Sequence record: PQ724393.1
Length of the DNA: 64,000 nt
Strand: one strand, 5' to 3'
Source of the DNA: a phage
Below the pieces are notes generated by a model. The model saw only the letters and a list, made by a program, of their open reading frames with translations, had not been told where the DNA came from and did no database searches. Positions 24,947 through 38,543 of this stretch are shown piece by piece. Both the position numbers and the translations under genes were made by a program. Every line of letters begins with the position of its first letter. Position 1 is the first letter of the stretch.

Positions 24947-25306
24947 TTAAAGATGGTCGAGTGCCGGATTATGAGGCTTTTCTGCTTTAGCAGTATTTTT
25001 GTGCCAATCCGATTTAGAAACACGAATTGCATCCGCACCGTAAGAGCTCTTAAGGAGGCCCTTTTTATTGTAAACACTTATAGAAGTAAGGGTGTCACCA
25101 TTCCAAGTAGCATGGACGAAGTTGGATTTAGATTTAAGTTCTTTAGCCAGGCTCTGGTTGGTAGCCATAGAAGCAAAGTCTTTACCTGTAACTTTAAAAA
25201 CTTCAGATGGGTTCAGCCCTTCTTTAGCCTTAGCCAATTGTTCAGGAGACATAGCTTCGTTAATGCGCTGAGTAGATTCAGTAATAAATTGTTGGTAAGT
25301 TTTCAT
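24947..25306 (-). CDS. Internal-protein-like head protein with capsid targeting sequence (119 aa)
   Basis: N-terminus MKTYQQFITE-S matches the T4 IP capsid targeting sequence ([10 protein letters not shown], prohead protease cleavage after Glu of [IL]-x-E). Confidence 0.6.
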   Translation of the reverse strand: MKTYQQFITESTQRINEAMSPEQLAKAKEGLNPSEVFKVTGKDFASMATNQSLAKELKSKSNFVHATWNGDTLTSISVYNKKGLLKSSYGADAIRVSKSDWHKNTAKAEKPHNPALDHL

Positions 25307-25845: not shown

Positions 25846-26442
25846 TTAATTACCACGGGCTGCATTAGCAACGGCGTAAGCGTACTGAACATTAGCGTCT
25901 TTAAACGTACCTTTAGAGGTATCTATTTCTGCCTTAAAGCCACCTTTAGCCATAACATCAGCAAATTCTTTACGGAAAGCCATTGCATCAAGACCTTTCC
26001 ATGATGATTTGTGCTTGGCAAATTCAAGACCGGCGAAGTTGACAGCCTTAGCCAATTTATTATCAATAGTCCATTTACCTGCTTTAGGTACAACTACCGG
26101 GCCTTTTTGTTTAGAGAACAGTTTTAAATTCCAGCGACGAAGGTCGCCGTCAGCTTTAACAAAAGCTGCGTCCAAGTTACTAGCAACAACATCCTGAATA
26201 TGGCCAAATTTAAGCCCATCAGCTTCAATATTTAGGTCGTTACGCCAGCGAAGTCCTTCCCAGGCGAAAGCTTTAAAGTCAGAAGCTTTTGTAGCTAAAT
26301 ACCGTTCAATAGGAGCTGTTTTAGCGTCAAAACCATTTCCTGGGTTGTCAACGCCATTTCCTCGGTAGGTCCACTCATCTTTATTAATGCCTTGGACCTT
26401 TCCTACAGAAGCTTCGGCGATAAATTCTTTATACGTTTTCAT
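25846..26442 (-). CDS. Internal-protein-like head protein with capsid targeting sequence (198 aa)
   Basis: N-terminus MKTYKEFIAE-A; between denV and e, where T4 has ipII/ipIII. Confidence 0.6.
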   Translation of the reverse strand: MKTYKEFIAEASVGKVQGINKDEWTYRGNGVDNPGNGFDAKTAPIERYLATKASDFKAFAWEGLRWRNDLNIEADGLKFGHIQDVVASNLDAAFVKADGDLRRWNLKLFSKQKGPVVVPKAGKWTIDNKLAKAVNFAGLEFAKHKSSWKGLDAMAFRKEFADVMAKGGFKAEIDTSKGTFKDANVQYAYAVANAARGN

Positions 26443-26529: not shown

Positions 26530-27018
26530 TTATCTATAAGCGGCCCAAGTACCTGTTTTAAATGTTGAAATCACGCGCTTAGCACGGTTAGGGGTTTGCT
26601 TGTACCAACGAGATTGAGCCAGGTTAACTGCCGCATCGTTCCAACGTTTCTGTTGGAGCATACGTAAAGAGTTAGTGAACCCTGCTACACCTGCTTCACC
26701 CATTTGGAAGACCATGTTAATTAAAGCACAACGACGAACTTCATCGAGCACATCATAAACAGGTTTCAATTTAGGATTACGCAGAATAGCTCTACGAGCA
26801 TTATCAACCGACCGGTTAAAGAGTTGTTCTGCTTCAGCCATAGTAATACGACCATTACAAACTCGACCCATAAGCTTATCAAGTTCAGCGCGGGCAACAT
26901 CTTTAGATGGGTTCTTGGTAACTAACTGGCCAATACCAATAGTCCAATAACCTTCAGTGTCTTTATAAAGATTTAAATCAAGACCTTCGTCTTGACGTAA
27001 CATATCAAAAATATCCAT
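26530..27018 (-). CDS. e: Lysozyme (endolysin) e
   Basis: 162 aa [31 protein letters not shown]...; T4 lysozyme catalytic region (E, D, T) conserved. Confidence 0.9.
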
Positions 27019-27048
27019 AATACCTCCTGAGTATAGGAGGTATTTATA
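27019..27048 (-). promoter_or_regulatory. Late promoter TATAAATA plus SD-sequestering hairpin for gene e
   Basis: Coding strand TATAAATA-CCTCCT-ATACTC-AGGAGG-TATT-ATG; first arm between promoter and start, SD is the second arm. Confidence 0.65.
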
Positions 27049-27498
27049 TCAAAAGAGCGAATCTAAAACCTTAAACATCGACGGGCCCATGACATATTTC
27101 CATTGTGGACGTTTAATCAAGGCAAAAGCATCGAATTCAGGAATCGTACGACCATCAGGGAACGTATGGTAAGCTGTACATTTGCAATTCTTGAACTGCT
27201 CGTGTTCCACAGGCACTGTATATAAGAACAGATGTAGATTCTTATTGCTTGAATATTTGAACTCACCTAGGTCTTTCAGGAATGCAGGATCGTATGCCGT
27301 GAATCCAATCTCTTCTTCGGTTTCACGCATTGCGGCTTGAATAGGCTCTTCGCCTGGTTCTACATGACCTTTAGGAATGTCCCATTTATGACGCATGTTC
27401 TCTGGATTACGAGAGCCTGTTACACGACCCATAACTAGTTCTTTATCAACGGTCATGAACAAAATACCGGCAGATAGTTCTTTAACTTTCTTACTCAT
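27049..27498 (-). CDS. nudE: Nudix hydrolase NudE
   Basis: Nudix box GHVEPGEEPIQAAMRETEEEIGF; start at ATG 27496-27498 (MSKKVKELSAGILF). Confidence 0.75.
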   Translation of the reverse strand: MSKKVKELSAGILFMTVDKELVMGRVTGSRNPENMRHKWDIPKGHVEPGEEPIQAAMRETEEEIGFTAYDPAFLKDLGEFKYSSNKNLHLFLYTVPVEHEQFKNCKCTAYHTFPDGRTIPEFDAFALIKRPQWKYVMGPSMFKVLDSLF

Positions 27499-27727
27499 CG
27501 TCTCGTTCCCACGATTGTTTAAAGATATCTTGCATAATAATTTGAAGTCTATTTTCTGATGATGGACTTTCACTATCAGACACTTGAAGCATATAGTCAC
27601 CAATAGGACAGAACATATCCATATCGCTTTCTAAGTCTTCTTTGATTTTCTCTTCTGACGTTCCGGTATCATAGGAATACAGATAAGAATCACATGACTC
27701 AGATTTAATATAAATTGCAATACTCAT
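27491..27727 (-). CDS. Hypothetical acidic protein (78 aa)
   Basis: ORF. Confidence 0.4.
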   Translation of the reverse strand: MSIAIYIKSESCDSYLYSYDTGTSEEKIKEDLESDMDMFCPIGDYMLQVSDSESPSSENRLQIIMQDIFKQSWERDDE

Positions 27728-28317
27728 TTACGGCATTCCTTAATAAACTCATTTAAATTATGTTTGTTTTTACCTTCGTCGTAAAGACGTTGTTGACGAC
27801 GTAAACGCCATGGCATTTCAATAGCCAAGCACCAAATACTTAAAGCAGCGCCAGCTGTGAAAAGATTCATTAATCCGGCGCCAATAATAGTTCGTTCTAG
27901 CGCATCATTCCAGTTAGCATCGATTAAAAATGAACTCAACACTAACATTGGAAGTAAAGTAATAAAATACGCTACAACATATCGTCCGAACGTAAGCCAT
28001 TCAGTATCGATGAGCTTAGCCTTTCCATCTTGGAGACAAATATACTTATCGTCAGTGCGGGTGATTTTCTTTACCGGTTGCCAACCATTTACGATATAAC
28101 CCATTCTGAACTCCTCAATTAAAAGCTGTTTCATTTCGGCAGTACAACCTGACCAATCTATTGTACTGGCTGAAATTCCTTCATCACAGTCATCGATATT
28201 TCGCCAGGACTTTTTAATAATCATATGTTCACCACTTGGGATAATAATTCCAGCATTTTCCGACCGACGGATGAAGTTTGTATCAATACCCATACAACCA
28301 GGTTCATAAAGGGCCAT
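27724..28317 (-). CDS. Hypothetical membrane protein (197 aa)
   Basis: C-terminal hydrophobic helices. Confidence 0.5.
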   Translation of the reverse strand: MALYEPGCMGIDTNFIRRSENAGIIIPSGEHMIIKKSWRNIDDCDEGISASTIDWSGCTAEMKQLLIEEFRMGYIVNGWQPVKKITRTDDKYICLQDGKAKLIDTEWLTFGRYVVAYFITLLPMLVLSSFLIDANWNDALERTIIGAGLMNLFTAGAALSIWCLAIEMPWRLRRQQRLYDEGKNKHNLNEFIKECRK

Positions 28318-29003
28318 TACCAGCCCTCCATAGGAAATTCCAGATATACTTGAGCATTAACGCGGATTTCATTTGTAATCTTTTTAACACGGTCGGTATT
28401 ACGAGACACACGACCAAACCAGCGCCACCCGTTACTTACTGCACGAGAACCTGTATGCCATGTTTGCCAATCAAACTGGAGTAACGTGCGGTCAGGAGCA
28501 TCCCACTTGGTTAATTCATTGGACTCAATTTTTTCCAGAACTTCTTTATGCCACTGGCGATAGATAAGTTCGCCTTCAGGAATCTGACTGAACTGTGCAG
28601 TTCCGGTTGCAAAATGAGTAGGACACACATCAGCATTAACAAGACCAAGAATATGTTCAGAATGGTATCGAGGATTATCATAATCAGGTTGCCCTGCGGT
28701 AATAAAGTGTTGACCCACCGGAATATCTGGACGTGGTACATCATCATGGTGGAAGCCTGGAATTGCAGGGTACCAGCCGGGCATTAACATGTGTACACGG
28801 GAATCAAATACGCATTCAACGGCTTTCCACTCATCAGGGAGATTAGTAATAAAGCTACGAGTAATAGGACCACCATTTTGTGCAGCAAAATTCAAATCAC
28901 AGTTAAAGAACATAGGCTCGTTTTTAATATCATCATTAGAAATATGACCTGCAAAACCACCTACTGCACGAGCTTTAGAATTAAAAGTTTTTGGACCGTT
29001 CAT
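28317..29003 (-). CDS. Hypothetical protein (228 aa) with HHDD metal-site-like motif
   Basis: PGWYPAIPGFHHDD followed by downstream His residues; possible metal-dependent enzyme, unverified. Confidence 0.5.
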   Translation of the reverse strand: MNGPKTFNSKARAVGGFAGHISNDDIKNEPMFFNCDLNFAAQNGGPITRSFITNLPDEWKAVECVFDSRVHMLMPGWYPAIPGFHHDDVPRPDIPVGQHFITAGQPDYDNPRYHSEHILGLVNADVCPTHFATGTAQFSQIPEGELIYRQWHKEVLEKIESNELTKWDAPDRTLLQFDWQTWHTGSRAVSNGWRWFGRVSRNTDRVKKITNEIRVNAQVYLEFPMEGW

Positions 29004-29017
29004 AATATTTTCCTCAC

Positions 29018-29230
29018 TTACTTTTTGTTGAAAAAGTACATTTTACCTTTAGGAGATAAGGATACACGAAGGGCGTTACCAATACCAACTGAACATTTAA
29101 CCAGGTCAGCAGATTTCAATTCACCAAATGCTTGACGAAGGTCTCCATCACGAGTGTTAACCATCAGGCATTTAGCACCAGCTGCACGAACTTCGTTTAA
29201 CATGTTGATTGCTTGGTTAGAAAGTTTCAT
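29018..29230 (-). CDS. Hypothetical protein (70 aa)
   Basis: Start at MKLSNQAIN (ATG 29228-29230) with SD GGAGAATAAA; 5'UTR identical to that of gene at 37528. Confidence 0.45.
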   Translation of the reverse strand: MKLSNQAINMLNEVRAAGAKCLMVNTRDGDLRQAFGELKSADLVKCSVGIGNALRVSLSPKGKMYFFNKK

Positions 29231-29297
29231 TTTATTCTCCATTTCACTCTGTTGTTTTGATAGGTCTATAGTATCACACCTATAGACCTTGTACACT
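29231..29297 (-). promoter_or_regulatory. Early promoter / stem-loop cassette (variant -35 GTGTACA)
   Basis: Conserved core ttgataggtctatagtatca; stem GGTCTATAG/CTATAGACC. Confidence 0.45.
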
Positions 29298-29308
29298 GTT
29301 TTGTGCAA

Positions 29309-30268
29309 TTATTTTTCGAAAGGACGAATTAAATGATGGTTATCTTGGAAACGCTTGATGTAGTCGTTTTCACCTAAAGTCTTATACATATTCACTACAG
29401 CTTGGTAGTTTTCCCAGGCGTACTCGCGGAACCAACCTGAAGTGATTGAGGTACACACTTTCTCAAGAGCCATATAAAAACTTAATGATGGTGAAATATT
29501 GAAGTCATTAGGAACCTGTGAACGTTCTAGTGCCAGGACACAAGTTTCTTCATATACACCAGCCAGTTTAATAGCTTCGGGCAAAGCCTCGAACTTCTCA
29601 CGAGAGGTCATGACTTCAGAACCTTCCTTCATATAAAAGGTATATGCAGGGCGTCCAGCCAATGCTACTGCTTCATGAATAGAGTCATGGTCCAGCGTAT
29701 AAATGGTATCATTAAAGAACGATGATTTGTTTACGTCCAATTTAGGGTGAGAATAGCTCAACGTTTCTTTTTGACGTTGCAACATAATTTCCCGGAGTTC
29801 TTCGTTCAGGGTGATACCTTTATTACGAAGGTATTTGATGTGGGACATAGTTTTCAAGAAGAACGGATTATTCTTCAGGAAACGATGAGAGGTTTTGATA
29901 GCCAGACAGATATCAGGCGTTGCCCAATAGAAACCAGTAAGACGGTCCTTTTTAATATGATTTTCAGCATATTTCAGGAGACGATAACTTGAAGTGAAAT
30001 CTTCGTCTTGAAGCTCGCCAGTAATTTCTCGTACGTTAGTCAGAGCACGGACAATATAAGCTTCAAAATAGGTTTCTTTACCATTGTACATACATTTAAA
30101 GGCCTGGACATCAGGATTATCCACAGGAACATGAGCGCCGAACATCCGGGCTTTAAAGTGATTCCATGAGCCTTGGTCGGCAATGAAATCCCAATCAGAA
30201 TTTTCGATATGCTTACTTTCAATCAGACCAGCGTGGTGCAGTGCACGAGAACCAATAACTAGCATCAT
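29309..30268 (-). CDS. Hypothetical protein (319 aa) with possible nucleotidyltransferase-like N-terminus
   Basis: LVIGSRALHHAG...SDWDFIA loosely fits GS...DxD; weak. Confidence 0.5.
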   Translation of the reverse strand: MMLVIGSRALHHAGLIESKHIENSDWDFIADQGSWNHFKARMFGAHVPVDNPDVQAFKCMYNGKETYFEAYIVRALTNVREITGELQDEDFTSSYRLLKYAENHIKKDRLTGFYWATPDICLAIKTSHRFLKNNPFFLKTMSHIKYLRNKGITLNEELREIMLQRQKETLSYSHPKLDVNKSSFFNDTIYTLDHDSIHEAVALAGRPAYTFYMKEGSEVMTSREKFEALPEAIKLAGVYEETCVLALERSQVPNDFNISPSLSFYMALEKVCTSITSGWFREYAWENYQAVVNMYKTLGENDYIKRFQDNHHLIRPFEK

Positions 30269-30281
30269 AATATTTTCCTCA

Positions 30282-30449
30282 TTAATAAAGACGAGTTACT
30301 TCATATTTACCCAGTTCAGATTTTTTTGCTTCAATACGCGTTGCGGCTAGATTAGCAGCCTCTAGTGAAGAAAATTGGACCACTTGGGAAGTATTCTGCC
30401 TTACGCCACCTTGTGGGTGAGTAACAAAAACAATAAGAACATTATACAT
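30282..30449 (-). CDS. Hypothetical small protein (55 aa)
   Basis: ATG with strong SD GAGGAAAATATT; below ORF-track cutoff. Confidence 0.3.
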   Translation of the reverse strand: MYNVLIVFVTHPQGGVRQNTSQVVQFSSLEAANLAATRIEAKKSELGKYEVTRLY

Positions 30450-30470
30450 AATATTTTCCTCAGAGTAAAC

Positions 30471-30710
30471 TTAAATTTCAGCAACGTAATCGTTATGCAA
30501 TTCCCACATATCATCAGAATTATTCTTAATGATAGGAATTATCTCATTAGAGATTTCTTCTGCATAAGGGTCATTGATACAGTGGGCATCTTCAAAACGA
30601 ACACCGTAATCAGACTTCTTATAGGCAAAGCCATAAATCTTTTTAAACTTGGCACGACTAATTCGTACCGGCTCATCAGACTTATCAGACAATGGAGAGT
30701 AATACCACAT
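30471..30710 (-). CDS. Hypothetical protein (79 aa)
   Basis: ORF. Confidence 0.45.
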   Translation of the reverse strand: MWYYSPLSDKSDEPVRISRAKFKKIYGFAYKKSDYGVRFEDAHCINDPYAEEISNEIIPIIKNNSDDMWELHNDYVAEI

Positions 30711-30753
30711 ATGTTCTCCTCATGTTTGTGTAGGGTAATAGTAACATGATTTT

Positions 30754-31083
30754 CTAGAGTTGTACATCACTTCTGCAATATTCTAAAAATAATTTATCGT
30801 TGTCTACGGTATCCCAACGACGCCAAGATGGGTTCCAGACCAAAGCGTTGTCACCACAATCATTGAGCTTAAAATGGTCGTAGTACATAGCTATATGTCT
30901 GGTTTCGTCACCAGAGAACCCTAGTATAGGCTCACCATGAGTATGATACATATGATGGTGCATTGAGAGGTCGCATTTGTAAAACATCTCACGTTTACCA
31001 CGAATGAACAAGAAAGCTTGACCATTCATATAGAATTCTTTATCTGTTTTCAAAAGATATTTGAATACCGAATCTTTATGCAT
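30754..31083 (-). CDS. Hypothetical His-rich protein (109 aa)
   Basis: Start at ATG 31081-31083 with SD AGGAGGA; HHHMYHTH cluster. Confidence 0.45.
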   Translation of the reverse strand: MHKDSVFKYLLKTDKEFYMNGQAFLFIRGKREMFYKCDLSMHHHMYHTHGEPILGFSGDETRHIAMYYDHFKLNDCGDNALVWNPSWRRWDTVDNDKLFLEYCRSDVQL

Positions 31084-31113
31084 AAGTCCTCCTACCACAT
31101 CCTTGTGGTTAAA

Positions 31114-31341
31114 TTATTTTCCTAACGAAACACGAGTAGGTTTTTTACCAAAATAGTCTTCATAAGACCCATCTAAACGACCTGCTTTAGACCGACAATA
31201 TGAATCGTACTTTTTGTAATAAGTCATCTCGGTATTATAACGCGGGTGTCTATCAGCCATAATAATACTTAACGGCCAACCTTTGGCATAATCGCGAAGA
31301 CCATTTATTTTACGAATGTATCTTTTCTTTAATTTTAGCAT
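31114..31341 (-). CDS. Hypothetical basic protein (75 aa)
   Basis: ORF; start overlaps stop of paralog 1. Confidence 0.4.
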   Translation of the reverse strand: MLKLKKRYIRKINGLRDYAKGWPLSIIMADRHPRYNTEMTYYKKYDSYCRSKAGRLDGSYEDYFGKKPTRVSLGK

Positions 31342-31559
31342 GAGCTCGGATACCAGATTTTACCATCAGAACGAGCAACGAAGGTTCGGCCGGCTTCTTC
31401 GCCGTAACAAGAGCTATTCAGCCAATCTTCAAGACGAACTTCACCATCATAATCATCAAGCTCAACACCAAAATCTTGTGCAGAAGCCATATCTTTTACT
31501 TTCTTATACAGCGCAGCCAGTTCAAGAGCAGCTTTTTCTAATTCATTAATATCAGACAT
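31335..31559 (-). CDS. Small protein paralog 1 of 5 (C-terminal ...WYPSSC)
   Basis: 74 aa; N-terminal helix EKAALELAALYKK; shares C-terminal W-x-x-S-S-x-C with four upstream neighbours. Confidence 0.5.
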   Translation of the reverse strand: MSDINELEKAALELAALYKKVKDMASAQDFGVELDDYDGEVRLEDWLNSSCYGEEAGRTFVARSDGKIWYPSSC

Positions 31560-31568
31560 TTTATTTCC

Positions 31569-31799
31569 TTAGCAAGACATAGAGGAGTTAAACCAGAAAC
31601 CCTGGCCATCATTGATACCGTAATCACTGCGAATCCAGTCATATTCTTCGTATTCTTCGCTAGAAGCCGGAATATAACGCTGGAAACGGTCTGCGGCGTG
31701 TAAATTAAAAATTTCGCCGGTTTTATCGGCCAGCTGCTCACCTTCACAGATTAGTGCACGGATTTGGTCTTCGATTTCTTTAACAGTTTTAGAAGTCAT
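31569..31799 (-). CDS. Small protein paralog 2 of 5 (C-terminal ...FWFNSSMSC)
   Basis: 76 aa; TAAGG stop/SD junction to next gene. Confidence 0.5.
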   Translation of the reverse strand: MTSKTVKEIEDQIRALICEGEQLADKTGEIFNLHAADRFQRYIPASSEEYEEYDWIRSDYGINDGQGFWFNSSMSC

Positions 31800-31808
31800 T
31801 TTATTACC

Positions 31809-32006
31809 TTAGCATTCGTAAGAGGAGGACACCCAAGAGGTACCACTAATTGTAATACAACCATTATAAAGCGTGATATGACGTTCCAGGTCACGAACAC
31901 CGTCGATATAGATATCAGCTTCTTCGCGTTCTTCTTTACAAATCTGGATAACGTTTTCAATAGCTGCGGCTGCAGTACGGATTGCACAATCTAGTTCACG
32001 AGACAT
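31809..32006 (-). CDS. Small protein paralog 3 of 5 (C-terminal ...SWVSSSYEC)
   Basis: 65 aa. Confidence 0.5.
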   Translation of the reverse strand: MSRELDCAIRTAAAAIENVIQICKEEREEADIYIDGVRDLERHITLYNGCITISGTSWVSSSYEC

Positions 32007-32015
32007 AATAATTCC

Positions 32016-32297
32016 TTAACATTCAGAAGAAGAGGATACCCATCCACCATTTTCTAGGCTGGTAGTGTAATCATGTTGGTTTACAATAGCGTACTGAGCT
32101 TCACCGTATTCTTCCCAGTGGGCCAGGTCAGCTTTCAAGGCGCCAGGAGAATAATAGTCACCGCCCATACCGCGAGCAGGGTATATATTAAAATGAGTCT
32201 CATATTTGTTGGCAATTTCCTCGGCACGACGAATAGCTTTATGGATATCATTTACTGCAGCAGCCAGCTCTTTATTTTTACGGTAATCATTCATCAT
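32016..32297 (-). CDS. Small protein paralog 4 of 5 (C-terminal ...GWVSSSSEC)
   Basis: 93 aa. Confidence 0.5.
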   Translation of the reverse strand: MMNDYRKNKELAAAVNDIHKAIRRAEEIANKYETHFNIYPARGMGGDYYSPGALKADLAHWEEYGEAQYAIVNQHDYTTSLENGGWVSSSSEC

Positions 32298-32306
32298 AGC
32301 GTTTCC

Positions 32307-32597
32307 TTAGCACATTGCCGAAGAGGAGACCCAAGCACCAACTGTAACGACGCCATTTTCAACTTCACCACCATTGTTTTCAATTTCATCTTTAAACCAC
32401 TGGGAGCATTCATAACCAACAGGGTAGTATGTACGTCCTGAGCCATAATCACCTGTTCCGAATTGAATACCGTACTTATCGGCAATAGCTTCACATTTGG
32501 ATTCGATGGTATCCACTTTATTCAGAAGAGCATAGATAGCCTTTTCTGCAGATTTCTCGTCATTGTATTCAGGGATTTCAATTTCAATTTTATTCAT
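32307..32597 (-). CDS. Small protein paralog 5 of 5 (C-terminal ...AWVSSSAMC)
   Basis: 96 aa. Confidence 0.5.
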   Translation of the reverse strand: MNKIEIEIPEYNDEKSAEKAIYALLNKVDTIESKCEAIADKYGIQFGTGDYGSGRTYYPVGYECSQWFKDEIENNGGEVENGVVTVGAWVSSSAMC

Positions 32598-32947
32598 GAT
32601 TTACATTCCTTAATAAAGGTTTCAAGGTCATTACGTTTGGTTTGTTTTACATACTCATTATAATTAGCCATCTCTAAAGCATATCTCTTTTTACGTGGCT
32701 TGTTTATTTTATTAGTTTGGGCGATATCAAAGACCAATGGGATAAAGTATCCTATTAAAGCCGGAACCCAAATCCATGCGAGGCTCATATCTTCAAACGG
32801 ATGGCGAGGCATACCATTAATAATCCCGCCGACAAGAAATCCAATTATCCCTGCAACCATACTAGTAGCAATGCCGAGGAATAATGAAATAGAGATATCG
32901 TAATCTGCTAATGCGTAACCAGGGTCGGTTTTACTAGGCTTATACAT
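32594..32947 (-). CDS. Hypothetical membrane protein (117 aa)
   Basis: Start at ATG 32945-32947 (MYKPSK); two hydrophobic helices. Confidence 0.45.
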   Translation of the reverse strand: MYKPSKTDPGYALADYDISISLFLGIATSMVAGIIGFLVGGIINGMPRHPFEDMSLAWIWVPALIGYFIPLVFDIAQTNKINKPRKKRYALEMANYNEYVKQTKRNDLETFIKECKS

Positions 32948-33476
32948 TTTGGACCTCTTTGGCGTATTCGCGGCATTCAGCAATAAAACGATTAAGCTTA
33001 CGTTGTTGTTTACGACTTTCTAATGTGTATTCGTTGGCTAAAATAATAAGCTCATCTTTATCGTAGTTTTTGATATCCGAATAACTCGGGCGACGGTCGA
33101 TCATTCCAAATACATCACCATTTTCTAAAGCTACATAGCATACTAAATGGTAATCATCGTCTGCCATATTAAGAAGCACACAATCAGCGCTCTCGTTTAA
33201 AGAATATACTGAATAACGTAGTCCGGCGAATTCCACTCGTTGAATAGCCAGATTTACGTCAATAATTTCCAAAGCATCTTCAAAAGAAAGGTCTTCAGCT
33301 AAAGCAAAAATAAAAGGTAATTTGGTAGTATCGCCACGGCTAGATGTTCTGCTTAAGAAATCGTTTGAATAGCCTAGGTCTTGGCGAATTCTATAAAGAA
33401 CTGAATTGGTTTCATGGGAAAGACCGCTATTTTTAAACCAATCAATATTGGATATCAAATTATCATATAAGCTCAT
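32940..33476 (-). CDS. Hypothetical protein (178 aa)
   Basis: ORF with ATG start. Confidence 0.5.
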   Translation of the reverse strand: MSLYDNLISNIDWFKNSGLSHETNSVLYRIRQDLGYSNDFLSRTSSRGDTTKLPFIFALAEDLSFEDALEIIDVNLAIQRVEFAGLRYSVYSLNESADCVLLNMADDDYHLVCYVALENGDVFGMIDRRPSYSDIKNYDKDELIILANEYTLESRKQQRKLNRFIAECREYAKEVQNV

Positions 33477-33524
33477 AATATTCTCCTCTCCTCCAAATAG
33501 GGAGACCGAAGTCTCCCAGTAACA

Positions 33525-34118
33525 TTACTTAAGTGAATTAATGTAGTCTTCGATATCAGCAGAAGTCGTATCCATTCCAACTTGCGGGCCTTTAAACGTT
33601 TCTACACGAAGTAGGGTATCTTCAATATCAATCTTAGTCAATGCGGCGATTTCAACAACATCATCGGCAGTAGCAATACCCAGGGCAGCCATATTACGAG
33701 TTTCACGAATGTACTCAAGCTTAACCGCTAGTTCCTGGCGAGAGTCATCAAGTTCCTTGACCTTAAGCTTAATTTCATTACGCATTTCAACATAATCATC
33801 GGCTTTCTTACGAAGTTGAGTAGCCGTACGACGATAAAGGAGGCCAAGTTTAGCATGCACCTGAACATCAGCACCTTCTTTAATCAGTTTACGAATTTCA
33901 CGTTCTTTAGAACTAGCCAGTTGGTCCTTTTCGTTAGCGAGTTCACGAATACGTTTTTCTTCATTCACGGACTTAACATGAGCAGTCTGGAGTTCAGTGA
34001 TTTTATCAATCAGAGTAGAAGCCGCTTTGGTGTATTGGTCTTCGATTGACAGGTTCTGAGACATTGCTGTACCCAGTTTAGAACGGATGAATTCAACGAT
34101 TTTCTTTAAAGTGTTCAT
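33525..34118 (-). CDS. Hypothetical coiled-coil protein (197 aa)
   Basis: Downstream of promoter 34119-34192 with SD GAAGGAAAT; heptad-rich charged sequence. Confidence 0.5.
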
Positions 34119-34192
34119 AGTATTTCCTTCAGTTGGTTAACGTTTTGTAATCCATGAGGACATTATACCCTGTCCTCTGAGGGATGTAAACA
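34119..34192 (-). promoter_or_regulatory. Early promoter with hairpin flanking -10
   Basis: Coding strand GTTTACA-N17/18-TATAAT; GAGGAC/GTCCTC inverted repeat brackets the -10. Confidence 0.55.
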
Positions 34193-34193
34193 T

Positions 34194-34592
34194 TTATTTC
34201 ATTTTTGCGAGGCAAATTTCATTGGCTTCCCATTGAGCTTGCTTAATAATAGCTTTGGATACAGGAGCCCTTTGGCCATAAGTTTTTGACGTTGAGAGAA
34301 CAATACATTTGTTTGCTTCATTATGCCAGCCCCATGATTTTTCGCCATGGGTGCCTTTAACTACAGCTGACACCTCAACAGAGCAACCACCATCAGAAAT
34401 CTTGGTTTCGACAATCCATTCATTTCTCTCAGCAGCTTCAAGTTCCAATCTAGTTTTTTCTTCATACATCGCGGCCCAATCAGTTTTTGCCAAGTTGAAA
34501 GTAAGAGCTTTCTCTAATTCTTTGGCATATTTTTGTTGTTCAGGTGTTAATGAATTATACAACTCTTGCATTTCTTTATCTTCGATATTCAT
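34194..34592 (-). CDS. Hypothetical protein (132 aa)
   Basis: ORF downstream of promoter 34593-34648. Confidence 0.5.
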   Translation of the reverse strand: MNIEDKEMQELYNSLTPEQQKYAKELEKALTFNLAKTDWAAMYEEKTRLELEAAERNEWIVETKISDGGCSVEVSAVVKGTHGEKSWGWHNEANKCIVLSTSKTYGQRAPVSKAIIKQAQWEANEICLAKMK

Positions 34593-34648
34593 TATGATCT
34601 CCTCAAATTATGGGCTCATAATATCTTAATCATGGGCCCATGTAAACG
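34593..34648 (-). promoter_or_regulatory. Early promoter-like element with palindrome
   Basis: GTTTACA-N17-TATTAT; palindrome ATGGGCCCAT and partner TGAGCCCA flank the -10; SD GAGGAG. Confidence 0.45.
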
Positions 34649-34650
34649 TT

Positions 34651-34914
34651 TTATTTCATATTATTGAAATAATCTTCCGCATCAAAATCGTTATCATGAT
34701 AAACTTTGGTAGACAATTTAACATAACCTTCGGCGGCGAACATATTAACCACAACCTTTACAGTATACCATTGTCCATCATCATTACCCATTACTGCATA
34801 GGTTTCAAATATGGGATGGTCATCACCGATAACTTTAATATCGTTAACTGTAGCACCAAATTCTTCAGGAACGCATTTCATAAAGAAATTAAACAATTCA
34901 CCATAATTATCCAT
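34651..34914 (-). CDS. Hypothetical protein (87 aa)
   Basis: Start at ATG 34912-34914 with SD GGAGAG. Confidence 0.45.
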   Translation of the reverse strand: MDNYGELFNFFMKCVPEEFGATVNDIKVIGDDHPIFETYAVMGNDDGQWYTVKVVVNMFAAEGYVKLSTKVYHDNDFDAEDYFNNMK

Positions 34915-34979
34915 TTTACTCTCCTTCACACTGTTGTTTTGATAGGTCTATAGTATCATGTTCTACGAAAGAGTAAACA
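34915..34979 (-). promoter_or_regulatory. Early promoter / stem-loop cassette
   Basis: GTTTAC box at 34973-34978, conserved core ttgataggtctatagtatca. Confidence 0.5.
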
Positions 34980-35001
34980 TCTTTTTTAAACTTTTTAGAA
35001 A

Positions 35002-35030
35002 CAAAAAAGGCCCAACCTTTCGGAAGGGCC
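35002..35030 (-). terminator. Rho-independent terminator (minus strand)
   Basis: GC-rich hairpin GGCCC...GGGCC with CCGAAAGG core followed on minus strand by U6. Confidence 0.6.
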
Positions 35031-35121
35031 TAGAATCAGTTCTTGTAGAACCGGAATGGGTTTATGTGGAAGGCTAACATAGCTTTTATTTTAAAAGTTT
35101 CATATATTTCTCTAAGTTAAC

Positions 35122-35142
35122 CAAAAAAGCCCCAGACGGGGC
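35122..35142 (-). terminator. Rho-independent terminator (minus strand)
   Basis: GCCCC-AGAC-GGGGC hairpin flanked by A6 (plus) / U6 (minus), 6 nt after stop of gene at 35148. Confidence 0.7.
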
Positions 35143-35147
35143 TTTCG

Positions 35148-35612
35148 TTATTTGATTTGTTTAGCAGACCAGATACGGTCTTTGATGATTTTCTGAATAT
35201 CTTCAACATACTCTAAGTCGTGAGCATGCGGATTATCTTTGAAGCTATGTGCTCGTGCCAGTTTCTGGCCTTCTGTTTTGATTACTAAAAGCTCTTTAAG
35301 AATTGCTTCATACTTAGAAATGATTCCTTTAGCGATATTTTTTTCTTGAGCGGCTTTAGGGTCCGCTTTTGACGCAGGTGCTTTACCTGTAGCTTTCTGG
35401 AACAATTCACCTGATGCAGCTAGGCTTTTAAAAACTCGGCTAACAGTATTAGCATTAGTAAAACCTTCGGCTTTAAAATCTTTAATAAAACGGAAACGTT
35501 CTTCATCAGAGGCGTCTTTGTAAGAATATTTACCTGCTTGAATTGCTGCAATCGCGGCGGCTTTTACATCTGAACTAGATTGTTCGGTCAAAAATTCATT
35601 GTAAGTTTTCAT
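35148..35612 (-). CDS. Internal-protein-like head protein with capsid targeting sequence (154 aa)
   Basis: N-terminus MKTYNEFLTE-Q; Lys/Ala-rich; preceded by AATAAATA late-promoter-like box. Confidence 0.55.
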   Translation of the reverse strand: MKTYNEFLTEQSSSDVKAAAIAAIQAGKYSYKDASDEERFRFIKDFKAEGFTNANTVSRVFKSLAASGELFQKATGKAPASKADPKAAQEKNIAKGIISKYEAILKELLVIKTEGQKLARAHSFKDNPHAHDLEYVEDIQKIIKDRIWSAKQIK

Positions 35613-35652
35613 TATTATTTCCTAAGTTAATTAACTTATCTATTTATTATGC

Positions 35653-35680
35653 CAAAAAGCCCCAACCTTTCGGAAGGGGC
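35653..35680 (-). terminator. Rho-independent terminator (minus strand) downstream of tRNA cluster
   Basis: GCCCCAACCTTTCGGAAGGGGC hairpin, near-duplicate of 35002-35030 hairpin, followed on minus by U5. Confidence 0.6.
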
Positions 35681-35731
35681 CATGCCTTGCGGTAACCTTG
35701 TCGGGGTTCCACCTGCTAGGCAAGTGTTTGT

Positions 35732-35823
35732 ACGAAACGCCAGGATTCGAACCCGGTTATTAAGCAGTTGACGCTACTCAATATTTTTAAAAGGCCATAT
35801 CTCGACCATATCCGAACGTTCCG
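35732..35823 (-). ncRNA. tRNA-like element (possible type II tRNA or tRNA-like 3' domain of a small stable RNA)
   Basis: Canonical T-arm CCGGG-TTCGAAT-CCTGG and a 7-bp acceptor-like pairing CGGAACG/CGTTTCG 91 nt apart; D and anticodon arms could not be folded by eye; no encoded CCA. Confidence 0.3.
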
Positions 35824-36062
35824 TCAAAAACGCTACTCGGCTTACGGCAAAGATATTTCCTCGAATCGATAATTAGGTGCGCCGTTTCTGCTGTGATGTA
35901 AGGGGACATTAACAGATCGTAAAGATTTGTTAATGCCAGTCCTTACTCAGGGAACATCAGTCCGACGACTTACCGGTAGCGACCCGGTTTCTTGTTTGTT
36001 GCGCCGGTGAATGCTGGTAATCAGTCTTCATACGACGGCTTGACTATATAATAGTCTTCATT

Positions 36063-36137
36063 TGGTATCCCGCCCTGGGATCGAACCAGGACCGCAAACT
36101 TAGAAGGATCGTATGCTATCCATTACACCAGCGGGAC
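36063..36137 (-). tRNA. tRNA-Arg (anticodon UCU)
   Basis: Minus-strand GTCCCGC...CCTTCTAAG...GGTTCGATCCCAGG-GCGGGAT-A-CCA; anticodon loop CUUCUAA, T-loop, encoded CCA. Confidence 0.75.
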
Positions 36138-36142
36138 ATAGT

Positions 36143-36219
36143 TGGTGACCCGGACCAGATTTGAACTGGTAACCTTTCCCTTATGAGGGGACTGCTGCTA
36201 ACCATTGAGCTACAGGGCC
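36143..36219 (-). tRNA. tRNA with CAU anticodon (Ile2-type or Met)
   Basis: GGCCCTG...anticodon loop CUCAUAA...AGTTCAAATCTGGT-CCGGGTC-A-CCA; T4 encodes a tRNA-Ile at the corresponding position. Confidence 0.7.
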
Positions 36220-36224
36220 TTAAT

Positions 36225-36491
36225 TTAAATTACAAATCCAGCAGGGGCATTATCATCTTTAGCCATGTGCTGAATTGTATGATAAGTCATTTCTTCAGGA
36301 GCAACCAGATAAGCCGCAACGTTAACTAGTGGAATTATTTTTGGTTTAGCGAACGTGCTATCAGAAATTGCCATAAAGGGCTCGCCGTCGGTCTCAACTT
36401 CGCCAAATTGGCACTCGTAAGAAATAGAACAACGTTTGGTGGTGGTTGTCTTGGTTTTAGGGTCATAAAAAGCTAATTTTAATACTAACAT
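36225..36491 (-). CDS. Hypothetical protein (88 aa)
   Basis: ORF directly downstream of tRNA cluster. Confidence 0.45.
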   Translation of the reverse strand: MLVLKLAFYDPKTKTTTTKRCSISYECQFGEVETDGEPFMAISDSTFAKPKIIPLVNVAAYLVAPEEMTYHTIQHMAKDDNAPAGFVI

Positions 36492-36669
36492 AATACCTCA
36501 AATAAAATTAAGTAAAGTAAGTTTGATTAATAGACCTTGTCTATTATGAAAGGCTCTTTGAGGGAAGAACCTTTGGTAATAGAGGGTTACTTAATAATGT
36601 TAGAGTAATAATATCACATTACTCTTAAAGCATATTACTATTTTTAGGAATAGTCTGGTCAAATTTGAT

Positions 36670-37596: not shown

Positions 37597-38543
<947 letters not shown>

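Follow-up and report, generated by a model that had tools for sequence, protein, structure and literature searches.

The region that we have studied extends from 27491 to 34914 of the window, i.e., the complete stretch of 64,000 nucleotides of phage DNA that was analyzed (sequence record PQ724393.1). It is flanked on one side by nudE (27049-27498) and on the other by the gene of an internal protein with a capsid-targeting sequence (35148-35612), past which come homologs of the T4 RNAs C and D and then the genes of tRNA-Arg and tRNA-Met (36063-36219). The listing of open reading frames and the annotation of phage fDHCT2, which is 98.4% identical to the region at the DNA level, both give 19 protein genes, all on the minus strand, and not the ca. 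25 small genes that had been estimated in an earlier reading made from the sequence alone (the sequence-only reading). Matching DNA is present in 333 phage records, and in 45 of them a single match spans at least 80% of the query. The region could be matched gene for gene to JS98, RB69 and T4 and is, with very little doubt when its identity and its promoters (see below) are considered jointly, the hyperplastic region between e and the tRNA genes in a T4-like coliphage of the JS98 type (Dhakavirus), its 19 genes being non-structural and read leftward.

The segment had been described as an accessory island, and its character as a variable accessory region, predicted from its sequence to be transcribed early, has held up, whereas its novelty has not, since it equals the stretch from ORF130c to e.8 of RB69 and from e.2 to e.8 of T4, found in both phages on the same strand and in the same place between nudE and the tRNA genes. 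The layout of RB69 is almost gene for gene that of the window. The comparison with T4 that the sequence-only reading had proposed shows that e.2, an e.3-like gene, e.6 and e.8 have been kept, that the slots of e.5 and e.7 contain other, unrelated genes, that e.4 is absent from the window, and that T4 lacks both o78 and a block of 12 genes (o228 to p96, 28317-32597) located between e.2 and e.3 and largely common to RB69. In JS98 the place of the internal protein is taken by two different genes. All the features singled out in that reading were found (the membrane protein pair, the HHDD, 319-aa, His-rich and coiled-coil proteins, the five-paralog array and the promoter cassettes). Its statement that nothing could be assigned to T4 is right for function and wrong for homology, the four T4 counterparts being themselves uncharacterized. 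Each gene matched only families of unknown function in PHROGs, Pfam added only two DUFs, the NCBIfam and PADLOC searches gave no matches (thus none to a known anti-defense family in PADLOC), and the public annotations found for these genes all read "hypothetical protein". The expectation that this was the likeliest site of anti-defense functions thus found no backing, as no gene could be linked to one.

Several of the genes are small, and some of them are narrowly distributed, as judged over the 80 viral loci that contain homologs of the nucleotidyltransferase-like gene o319 (see below). The first, o78 (27491-27727; 78 aa, very acidic, pI 4.1; phrog_2900), has a homolog in ORF130c of RB69 (62% identical) and no match in T4, and its homologs are also found 1.1–1.7 kb upstream of the nucleotidyltransferase homolog in jumbo-phage loci (L046, L052-L054, L057 and L058). 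The basic o70 (29018-29230; 70 aa, pI 9.9; phrog_6001), which has its own early-type promoter, is present in just six of the 80 loci and o55 (30282-30449; 55 aa; phrog_20278) in three. The acidic o79 (30471-30710; 79 aa; phrog_3723) is a homolog of RB69 ORF135c (41% identical). The His-rich protein o109 (30754-31083; phrog_9796), with the sequence SMHHHMYHTH, is confined to Dhakavirus-type phages (7/80 loci) and had no match in the PDB. Next to it is the strongly basic o75 (31114-31341; 75 aa, pI 10.0; phrog_7065). In the e.7 slot, o132 (34194-34592; 132 aa; phrog_8232) is not homologous to T4 e.7 and gave no match in T4 or the PDB, and the last gene, the acidic e.8 (34651-34914; 87 aa), is an ortholog of T4 e.8 with 85% identity.

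A pattern of the T4 early type (T[TG]TAC[ATC] N16-18 TA[ACT][ACT][AT]T) was searched on the coding strand between 27000 and 35200 and gave six matches. All of them are at or within gaps between genes, although such gaps amount to just about 8.5% of the region. A generic sigma-70 scan detected 31 sites against 28.3 expected from shuffles, i.e., no excess, and therefore the argument for promoters depends on the T4 pattern itself and on where its matches lie. On these grounds, the region is predicted to contain no fewer than four to six T4 early promoters of the sigma-70 type, all on the minus strand. Three of the six keep the position that they have in T4 and RB69, phages with early promoters at the same junctions. 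They are located upstream of e.8 (34950-34977, TTTACT N16 TACTAT; position kept in both phages), of o132 (34618-34646, TTTACA N17 TATTAT; position of the T4 e.7 promoter), of e.6 (34162-34190, TTTACA N17 TATAAT; 11 of 12 consensus positions, kept in both phages) and of o70 (29268-29295), with a weaker match upstream of o79 (30738-30766, TGTACA N17 TACTAT) and another (30441-30469, TTTACT N17 TATAAT) whose -10 element falls inside the first codons of o55 and that would serve o319. The o70 promoter overlaps a promoter/leader cassette of 27 nt (29249-29275), an exact copy of which lies upstream of e.8 (34931-34957), where a terminator hairpin (35003-35030) precedes the promoter. Two of the promoters are predicted to be built as terminator/promoter/leader cassettes similar to the published PeSLs (Arbiol 2010, PMC2839356; Comeau 2014, PMC4122927), in which a stem-loop terminator is followed by an AT-rich stretch, TTTACW N17 TAYWAT, a Shine-Dalgarno sequence and the start codon. 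The window agrees with this architecture, also in that the cassette is repeated inside the hyperplastic region, and differs in that terminator and promoter are found together only at the e.8 cassette.

Two genes code for membrane proteins with two transmembrane segments each. The e.2-like protein (27724-28317; 197 aa from the first ATG; phrog_2203, "membrane protein") is 40% identical to T4 e.2 (E = 1e-27), with a family profile that begins at residue 32, and only 52% identical to its JS98 counterpart. The e.3-like o117 (32594-32947) has 22% identity to T4 e.3 (E = 2e-9). It is also a mosaic hot spot, with 77% identity to fDHCT2 against 99–100% in its flanks, and 56% to JS98; both o117 and e.2 showed this mosaic divergence between near-identical phages. 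The C-terminal motifs of the two proteins are FIKECRK and FIKECKS, respectively. A similar ending, FIAECRE, is the sole part that o178 (32940-33476; phrog_8788), an acidic and soluble protein that occupies the slot of e.5, has in common with T4 e.5, BLASTP covering only the 15 C-terminal residues. There was no match of o178 in the PDB.

The coiled-coil protein e.6 (33525-34118; 197 aa, 74% identical to T4 e.6) is, with considerable confidence, a divergent and short member of the PspA/IM30/Vipp1 proteins (ESCRT-III superfamily), as judged from profile comparisons. The profile of its family, which has a uniform length of 195–205 aa, matched Vipp1 in the PDB with E = 9.1e-5 (residues 1–140 on 1–141) and PspA with E = 2.6e-3, and hhalign gave a probability of 90.7%. 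Two homologs from T4-like contigs, P0309 (39.0 bits) and P0303 (35.1 bits), exceed the curated Pfam cutoff of PF04012 (33.9) over profile positions 2–143. Coiled-coil composition can inflate profile scores, and the likeness could be an artefact of this kind, e.6 being an unrelated helical protein: single members of the family weakly match many unrelated coiled-coil families of Pfam, the identity to Vipp1 is just 18%, and the e.6 of the window itself gave no direct PspA match in Pfam. We consider this quite unlikely given that Vipp1 and PspA dominate the PDB matches, with alignments co-linear from residue 1 that include the N-terminal amphipathic helix, and given the two members above the cutoff and the uniform length. 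A protein of this type would coat or repair the inner membrane and would help to maintain the proton-motive force during perforation and loading of the membrane by the phage. The small membrane proteins encoded nearby may serve as its anchor, a LiaI-like role for these two-segment proteins that is only an analogy.

The HHDD motif noted in the sequence-only reading belongs to o228 (28317-29003; 228 aa), a homolog of RB69 ORF132c, and corresponds to the HxD that binds iron in Fe(II)/2-oxoglutarate-dependent dioxygenases, the enzymes to which o228 is predicted to belong. By sequence o228 had no match in Pfam or the PDB. It has the fold of these enzymes and an invariant HxD...H...RxS, and the assignment is highly probable. 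The protein is unusually conserved (the best 120 of the listed homologs are 68–93% identical), and its homologs also stand alone in early regions of temperate prophages. It would hydroxylate or demethylate a widely conserved cellular target.

The 319-aa protein o319 (29309-30268; DUF7277 and DUF7275) had been credited with a loosely nucleotidyltransferase-like N-terminus, and structural comparison bears this out. It has a nucleotidyltransferase core of the Pol-beta type, in which 59 homologs keep G6-S7, D25-x-D27 and E69 without or almost without change, followed by a helical C-terminal domain that is very conserved and contains invariant Cys, His, Asp and Glu residues. On the same strand and upstream of it are the five tandem paralogs (31335-31559, 31569-31799, 31809-32006, 32016-32297 and 32307-32597; phrog_899 and phrog_4882), with four unrelated genes in between. 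They code for small acidic proteins (65–96 aa) that end in W-x-x-S-S-x(0-2)-Cys-COOH, the W, both S and the C being invariant in the alignments. Four of the five junctions of the array are 9-nt spacers with the stop codon overlapping the next ribosome-binding site (TAAGGnA). Only these five among the 541 open reading frames of the window have the motif. The sequence-only reading had kept array and o319 apart; they form a single conserved module. In 74 of the 80 viral loci, tail-motif genes were found within 4 kb upstream of the o319 homolog and on the same strand, the Ser-to-Cys spacing ranging from 0 to 3 residues, and the same linkage appears in all five MAG contigs and in annotated genomes of Phapecoctavirus, Otagovirus and Menderavirus with unrelated flanking genes. 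Elsewhere, only about seven such genes were detected among the 12,483 open reading frames scanned (ca. 1.6 Mb). Six loci have no upstream copy by the strict motif; in one of them the tail is a near-variant (NWDSSTC), and in four a copy lies on the opposite strand some 6–6.6 kb away. Tail-motif genes were absent beside all four examined o319 homologs that lack the nucleotidyltransferase N-domain. No account of this module was found.

It is therefore likely that o319 is a nucleotidyltransferase functionally coupled to the tail proteins, and the two would act together. In the mechanism that we prefer, the linkage being observed and the chemistry inferred, the conserved tail would dock in o319 and one invariant serine or the terminal cysteine would be nucleotidylylated, so that the small proteins would be substrates or target-specific adaptors. 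The covalent modification is put forward tentatively, as the linkage would also fit an adaptor or a non-covalent regulator of the kind that MenA1 is to MenT1. In that pair the gene of MenA1 is directly upstream of that of MenT1. The tail proteins could regulate, in the manner of antitoxins, a tRNA nucleotidyltransferase that is toxic and MenT-like, and two independent searches gave the toxin MenT1 as the closest solved structure to o319. MenA1 is a helical protein of 7.4 kDa that neutralizes MenT1 by inducing its auto-phosphorylation through an N-terminal helix (PMC11375011). The phage proteins are likewise small, acidic, upstream on the same strand and, by sequence pattern, helical at their N-terminus. 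We regard this regulation, in which the tail proteins would bind o319 unmodified or trigger its auto-phosphorylation and so time or restrain what o319 does to the 3' ends of host tRNAs, as rather doubtful. Up to five distinct and anciently diverged paralogs per enzyme would be unusual for an antitoxin, conservation peaks at the C-terminal tail rather than at the N-terminal helix, neither MenA1 nor MenT showed any likeness in sequence in PDB profile searches, neither Pfam nor PADLOC gave a DUF1814/AbiEii match, and tRNA genes were located within 10 kb in just 14 of the 51 loci checked.

Small multi-copy tandem genes directly upstream of an enzyme would also suit precursors of products that are made by the ribosome and modified after translation. 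In such a scheme o319 would nucleotidylylate a tail serine and, after elimination, attack by the terminal cysteine would close a lanthionine-like C-terminal ring. The invariant S-S...C spacing fits small thioether rings, and the second, very conserved o319 domain with its invariant residues also speaks for the scheme. Both the precursor role and this chemistry are very unlikely, since the number of residues between Ser and Cys varies, no known lanthipeptide enzyme family was detected, no protease or exporter is consistently near the loci, and the small proteins, with 60–160 aa that can be aligned along their full length, look like folded domains rather than leader-plus-core peptides. Finally, inherited gene order without functional coupling, in an island of unrelated morons, is highly improbable, for although most of the 80 loci are from T4-like phages with broadly conserved gene order and four other genes separate array and o319 in the window, the linkage survives entirely different flanking genes and is kept in 18 of 18 lineages (60% identity level), and the tail-motif family, essentially absent elsewhere in the DNA scanned, is the sole neighbor family shared across loci, any other reaching 35 of the 80 at most. 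The composite picture, i.e., region, promoters and the readings of e.6, o228 and the o319 module, is probable as a whole, and three genes formerly "hypothetical" (e.6, o228 and o319) receive predicted roles that can be tested.

Compared with known systems, o228 would share with the Fe(II)/2-oxoglutarate dioxygenases of the PhyH, EctD and EasH type the double-stranded beta-helix and the HxD...H...RxS ligands, in a compact protein of 228 aa. Beside PspA, IM30 (Vipp1) and LiaH, e.6 is shorter and its last 55 residues are unmatched, and no homologs of PspB, PspC, PspF or LiaI were detected; while those proteins protect bacterial membranes, e.6 is a gene of a lytic phage under an early-type promoter. 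The o319 module resembles MenT/MenA (DUF1814/AbiEii-type) in fold, in the G-S, DxD and E motifs and in the small protein encoded upstream on the same strand. It differs in sequence, in the large additional helical domain (DUF7275) and in its partners, between one and five paralogs whose invariant tail (W-x-x-S-S-x-x-C) has no equivalent in any MenA, and, in contrast to MenT/MenA, it is essentially found only in phages.

The place of the island (27491-34914, all genes on the minus strand) on the T4 map is fixed by its flanking genes. On one side are denV, internal proteins that begin with a capsid-targeting MKTY.EF sequence, lysozyme e and nudE, and on the other tRNA-Arg(UCU) and tRNA-Met. The 7.6 kb around it are 98.4% identical to Escherichia phage fDHCT2 and 90-95% identical to JS98, QL01, WG01, MX01 and other Dhakavirus phages. 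This 7.6-kb query matched 333 phage records, 45 of which had a single match covering at least 80% of it. We found 19 genes in the island, instead of the ca. 25 of the sequence-only reading, and consider them real because each has a plausible ribosome-binding site and they have homologs in other phages. All the features that had been named are present, i.e., the HHDD, 319-aa, His-rich and coiled-coil proteins, the five paralogs and the two membrane proteins (two hydrophobic segments apiece). The e.2-e.8 genes of T4 have long lacked an assignment, and a BLASTP search against the T4 proteins retrieved counterparts for e.2 (40% identity, E=1e-27), e.3 (22%, E=2e-9), e.6 (74%) and e.8 (85%). Therefore, the earlier statement that no gene could be assigned to a T4 function is true of function and untrue of homology. 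The genes in the e.5 and e.7 slots are unrelated to those of T4, and o78 (island ORFs are designated by their length in amino acids) together with a block of 12 genes (28317-32597) that runs from o228 to p96, a paralog of the array, had no counterpart among the T4 proteins. The arrangement in RB69, from ORF130c to e.8, matches that of the island. Genes for internal head proteins with the T4 capsid-targeting start MKTY(Q/K/N)(E/Q)F were detected at 24947-25306, 25846-26442, 35148-35612 and 37597-37887, the third of which is not conserved in JS98 (26% identity).

The public names that we encountered for the island proteins were all "hypothetical," and the PHROG matches were all of "unknown function," with the exception of a generic "membrane protein" for e.2. 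Pfam, NCBIfam and PADLOC scans gave nothing beyond two DUFs, and for about ten proteins (o78, o70, o55, o79, o109, o75, o178, o132, e.8 and the e.2/e.3-type membrane proteins) there was no match beyond their PHROG family. Single-sequence and profile searches of PDB sequences returned nothing significant for o319, o228, o178, o132, o109 or the paralog family. The ten island proteins scanned with PADLOC had no significant match to defence-related models; an anti-defence role for island genes, as had been expected, is no more than plausible. As a whole the island is not new, but an ordinary, known hyperplastic early region that has been sequenced repeatedly. Within it, three genes gain structural or functional readings, and one of them reveals an apparently undescribed two-part module.

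Since generic scans for sigma-70 promoters (31 sites vs. 28.3 in shuffles) and for terminators gave no excess over shuffled sequences, the T4-specific early pattern T[TG]TAC[ATC] N16-18 TA[ACT][ACT][AT]T was searched on the coding strand. It has six matches, all of them in or at intergenic gaps (ca. 8.5% of the region), in agreement with the promoter cassettes proposed before. Of the predicted early promoters, those preceding e.8, e.6 and the gene in the e.7 slot have positions in common with T4 and RB69. Upstream of e.8 (minus strand) there is a hairpin (35003-35030), an AT-rich stretch, the promoter (34977-34950), a Shine-Dalgarno sequence and the ATG. This is the architecture of the PeSL, described beside variable genes of a hyperplastic region as a stem-loop, an AT-rich stretch, TTTACW N17 TAYWAT, a Shine-Dalgarno sequence and the start codon (PMC4122927); the five other sites consist of a promoter, accompanied or not by a local hairpin. 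A promoter/leader cassette of 27 nt has two exact copies, at 34931-34957 and 29249-29275. These copies, and the mosaicism of e.2 and o117 between near-identical phages (see below), are at most an indirect hint that PeSL cassettes may act as recombination junctions in the exchange of genes. Near-identical terminator hairpins (35003-35030 and 35654-35681, minus strand), GGCCC(C)TTCCGAAAGGTTGGG(G)C(C)TTTTT, lie on either side of an internal-protein gene. There are two terminators in the 233-nt gap before e.8, a gap that may be the scar of genes still found in JS98 (orf135/136). Between the stop codon of e.6, which it directly follows, and the ribosome-binding site of o178 there is a perfect UUCG-tetraloop hairpin (GGGAGAC-UUCG-GUCUCCC, 33500-33517, minus strand). 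The only copy of the T4 late-promoter motif (TATAAATA) on either strand of 27000-36500 is at 27048 (minus strand), upstream of e, which fits late expression of this lysozyme gene and an island devoid of late promoters.

The Rfam scan detected two tRNAs only. Between the internal-protein gene and tRNA-Arg there is a non-coding stretch of 450 nt that folds far better than its shuffles (z = -5.1), and a 263-nt segment of it, at 35731-35992 (minus strand), is 93.5% identical to the stable RNAs C and D (species 1 and 2) of T4, or 95% in the case of RB69; Rfam has no family for these RNAs. Among the other loci fetched, ARAGORN predicted a tRNA of the ochre-suppressor type (anticodon UUA) in a Mosigvirus-like one (L017, 4381-4474) and permuted tmRNA-like genes beside the tRNA clusters of two other phage contigs (L094, 10047-10421; L101, 7547-7862).

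The first of the three genes (33525-34118) encodes the coiled-coil protein e.6. By exhaustive HMMER searching we obtained 36 cluster representatives, with full-length members of 195-205 aa, and a profile of 26 of these proteins matched Synechocystis Vipp1 in the PDB (8qfv, E=9.1e-5, profile 1-140 over chain 1-141), PspA/Vipp1 6zvr (E=2.6e-3) and further Vipp1/PspA chains to E=7e-3. All the matches are co-linear from residue 1, the similarity taking in the N-terminal helix alpha0 as well as the region of the alpha1-alpha3 hairpin, and hhalign aligned the family with Vipp1 residues 1-145 at a probability of 90.7%. The e.6 of the window had no match to Pfam PF04012 (PspA_IM30); when family members were scanned singly four of them matched, P0309 (39.0 bits) and P0303 (35.1 bits) above the curated cutoff (33.9) and P0306 and P0308 at ca. 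22 bits. For the PF04012-matching homologs the similarity to e.6 has E=1.5e-5 and 2.4e-9, and P0309 and P0303 come from T4-like contigs with UvsX, a gp41-type helicase and DNA ligase. From these profile comparisons we conclude that e.6, and thereby T4 e.6, is a putative short and divergent PspA/IM30 homolog. Such a protein would stabilise the inner membrane during infection, and the small membrane proteins encoded nearby might anchor it, by analogy with LiaI, which anchors LiaH. Our literature search on T4 e.5, e.6 and e.8 and on phage-encoded PspA found nothing relevant. The assignment provides the testable hypothesis that the phage carries its own membrane-stabilising protein, and bears on the resealing and potential of the membrane in infected cells, after injection and during lysis inhibition.

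The mosaic spots within Dhakavirus are the two membrane-protein genes, e.2 (27724-28317) and the e.3-like o117 (32594-32947), with only 52 and 56% identity to JS98, respectively. Even with fDHCT2, o117 is only 77% identical, and its neighboring genes are 99-100% identical. This mosaicism points to an exchange of cassettes or to diversifying selection. A C-terminal F-[IV]-x-E-C-[RK] is shared by otherwise unrelated proteins of the window (27724-28317, 32594-32947 and 32940-33476), by e.3, e.4 and e.5 of T4 and by RB69. The carriers, two to four per genome, are in some cases membrane-bound and in others soluble. ORFs with this ending are found within 3 kb of e.6 in 23 of 34 e.6 loci and are nearly confined to these, being present in two of the 49 loci without e.6. 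The tail may be a docking helix for e.6, in an association that is inseparable from common ancestry. Just downstream of e.2 in T4 there is an unannotated ORF of 51 aa (ca. 67491-67651 of the record, C-terminus ..NLNNFITECRKLK) that matches the C-terminal end of e.2 as it occurs, in full length, in JS98, RB69 and the window, and thus the annotated T4 e.2 of 102 aa looks split or frameshifted.

The second gene, o228 (28317-29003), has 1322 detectable homologs, the best 120 of which are 68-93% identical. Its HHDD motif, already pointed out from the sequence, turned out to be part of a classical HxD...H...RxS signature, with H85, H86, D87, D88, H183, R198 and S200 invariant in 45 sequences of the family. 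In the AlphaFold model, which is confident (pLDDT 89.2), the conserved residues are on or after strands 82-85, 182-185 and 192-201 of a predicted double-stranded beta-helix. They would provide the HxD/E...H iron triad and the basic residue (RxS) for the 2-oxoglutarate carboxylate, i.e., the ligands of an Fe(II)/2-oxoglutarate dioxygenase. A homolog 71% identical appears solitary in temperate-prophage-like early regions, adjoining a cI-like repressor, ERF, RusA and YopX, and also in a 612-kb bacterial contig. An obligate pairing with o319 was rejected, given that o228 is present at only 24 of 80 loci carrying o319 homologs and is solitary in the prophage early regions. Its solitary presence in prophages and strong conservation indicate an independent, mobile and strongly constrained predicted enzyme; conservation across T4-like phages of several host genera, along with the temperate-prophage-like context, points to a conserved cellular target. 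In each of these temperate-prophage-like and bacterial loci (L004-L006) the o228 homolog is followed by an overlapping ORF of 79-83 aa.

The third gene, o319 (29309-30268), has DUF7277 and DUF7275 as its sole Pfam matches. The loose nucleotidyltransferase-like N-terminus noticed earlier proved to have the motifs and the alpha/beta core fold of the Pol-beta type in a confident model (pLDDT 92.5). Over the 59 sequences of the family D25, D27 and E69 are invariant and G6 and S7 at least 90% conserved, and G[ST]...DxD/E is kept in 78 of 80 viral homologs. The motifs of the superfamily are hG[GS] and, in strand 2, [DE]h[DE]h, with a third carboxylate contributed by a later strand, and in the model they are where expected (strand 2-5, helix 6-12, strand 26-31 and strand 64-73). 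The C-terminal domain holds most of the invariant residues and has no solved match beyond a MenT-like part. There was no match to DUF1814/AbiEii in Pfam at E<=0.1 or in PADLOC, and the family profile reached no MenT chain of the PDB at E<=10. For lack of a sequence link to DUF1814/MenT we classify o319 as a predicted nucleotidyltransferase (NTase) with a MenT-like core and not as a MenT member. A literature search on DUF7275/DUF7277 found nothing relevant. By tblastn, 735 phage records have a homolog of o319, near full length in 559 cases, whereas Tequatroviruses such as T4 are without it in the region corresponding to the island. A general link between tRNA genes and the NTase was unsupported (tRNA genes nearby at 14 of 51 loci).

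The five paralogs of the array (31335-32597) share little sequence (15-31% identity), and in a homology-based alignment of 33 members of their family the W, S, S and terminal C of the tail are invariant. We took 80 viral loci with o319 homologs (41-98% identity; T4-like phages, Aeromonas phages and jumbo contigs of 355-371 kb) and searched the whole set of 12,483 ORFs for proteins ending in W..SS.{0,3}C. From one to five such ORFs were found within 4 kb upstream of the NTase and on its strand at 74 of the 80 loci, with about seven elsewhere, four of them in loci lacking an upstream copy; one further locus had a near-variant tail. In an unbiased clustering of neighbors, the tail-motif family alone was common across loci (73 of them, with two sister clusters besides), and the neighbor that came second was present at 31-35. 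The linkage is kept in all 18 lineages defined at 60% identity and in 26 of 27 at 70%, in five of five MAG contigs (from a scan of 185,579 species genomes), and in annotated genomes with unrelated flanks (three upstream copies in Phapecoctavirus Schickermooser and two in Otagovirus REC). Menderavirus IME-SM1 has a single copy, located downstream of the NTase gene and not upstream. In four homologs without the NTase N-domain that we examined (Streptomyces, Mycobacterium, Gordonia and Vibrio phages) there were no tail-motif neighbors. Within the 64-kb window the five paralogs alone carry the motif, and p96 (32307-32597) has homologs in 379 phage records by tblastn. The genetic coupling of o319 and the tail-motif genes is thus well supported, and the paralog array and the nucleotidyltransferase-like protein, listed apart in the sequence-only reading, can be joined as one conserved two-part module, which turns hundreds of "hypothetical" genes into a defined system.

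Two other genes occur around the module. Homologs of o78 (27491-27727) are found 1.1-1.7 kb upstream of the NTase, beside tail-motif genes, in jumbo loci L046, L052-L054, L057 and L058, and o78 may be a third component. A calcineurin-like metallophosphoesterase (lambda-phosphatase/NinI type) is directly downstream of the NTase at 13 of 80 loci (e.g., L046, 10967-11746) and 2.7 kb upstream of it in Schickermooser (L092, 1534-2277); it could be a reversing enzyme or a coincidence.

As to how the two parts relate, we favor the small proteins being substrates or adaptors of o319 that would act via the tail. The main rival, by analogy with MenA1-MenT1, is that the small tail-motif proteins control o319. 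A RiPP or lanthipeptide system is unlikely, as no recognised modifying-enzyme family (LanB/LanC/LanM/LanKC, YcaO, radical SAM etc.) was detected beside the small genes. A more specific form of the substrate relation, which we put forward as a tentative and rather doubtful possibility, is that o319 covalently nucleotidylylates or otherwise processes the invariant tails of up to five effectors with different host targets, in an undescribed phage-specific enzyme-plus-substrate system. Large phages would have a new route of action on their hosts if the small proteins proved to be processed effectors, and if the enzyme-plus-substrate relation is true, a new form of post-translational effector maturation would be found among large lytic phages of many families. 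Among known systems the closest precedent for a small protein paired with an NTase is MenA1-MenT1, where a 7.4-kDa partner controls the enzyme (PMC11375011).
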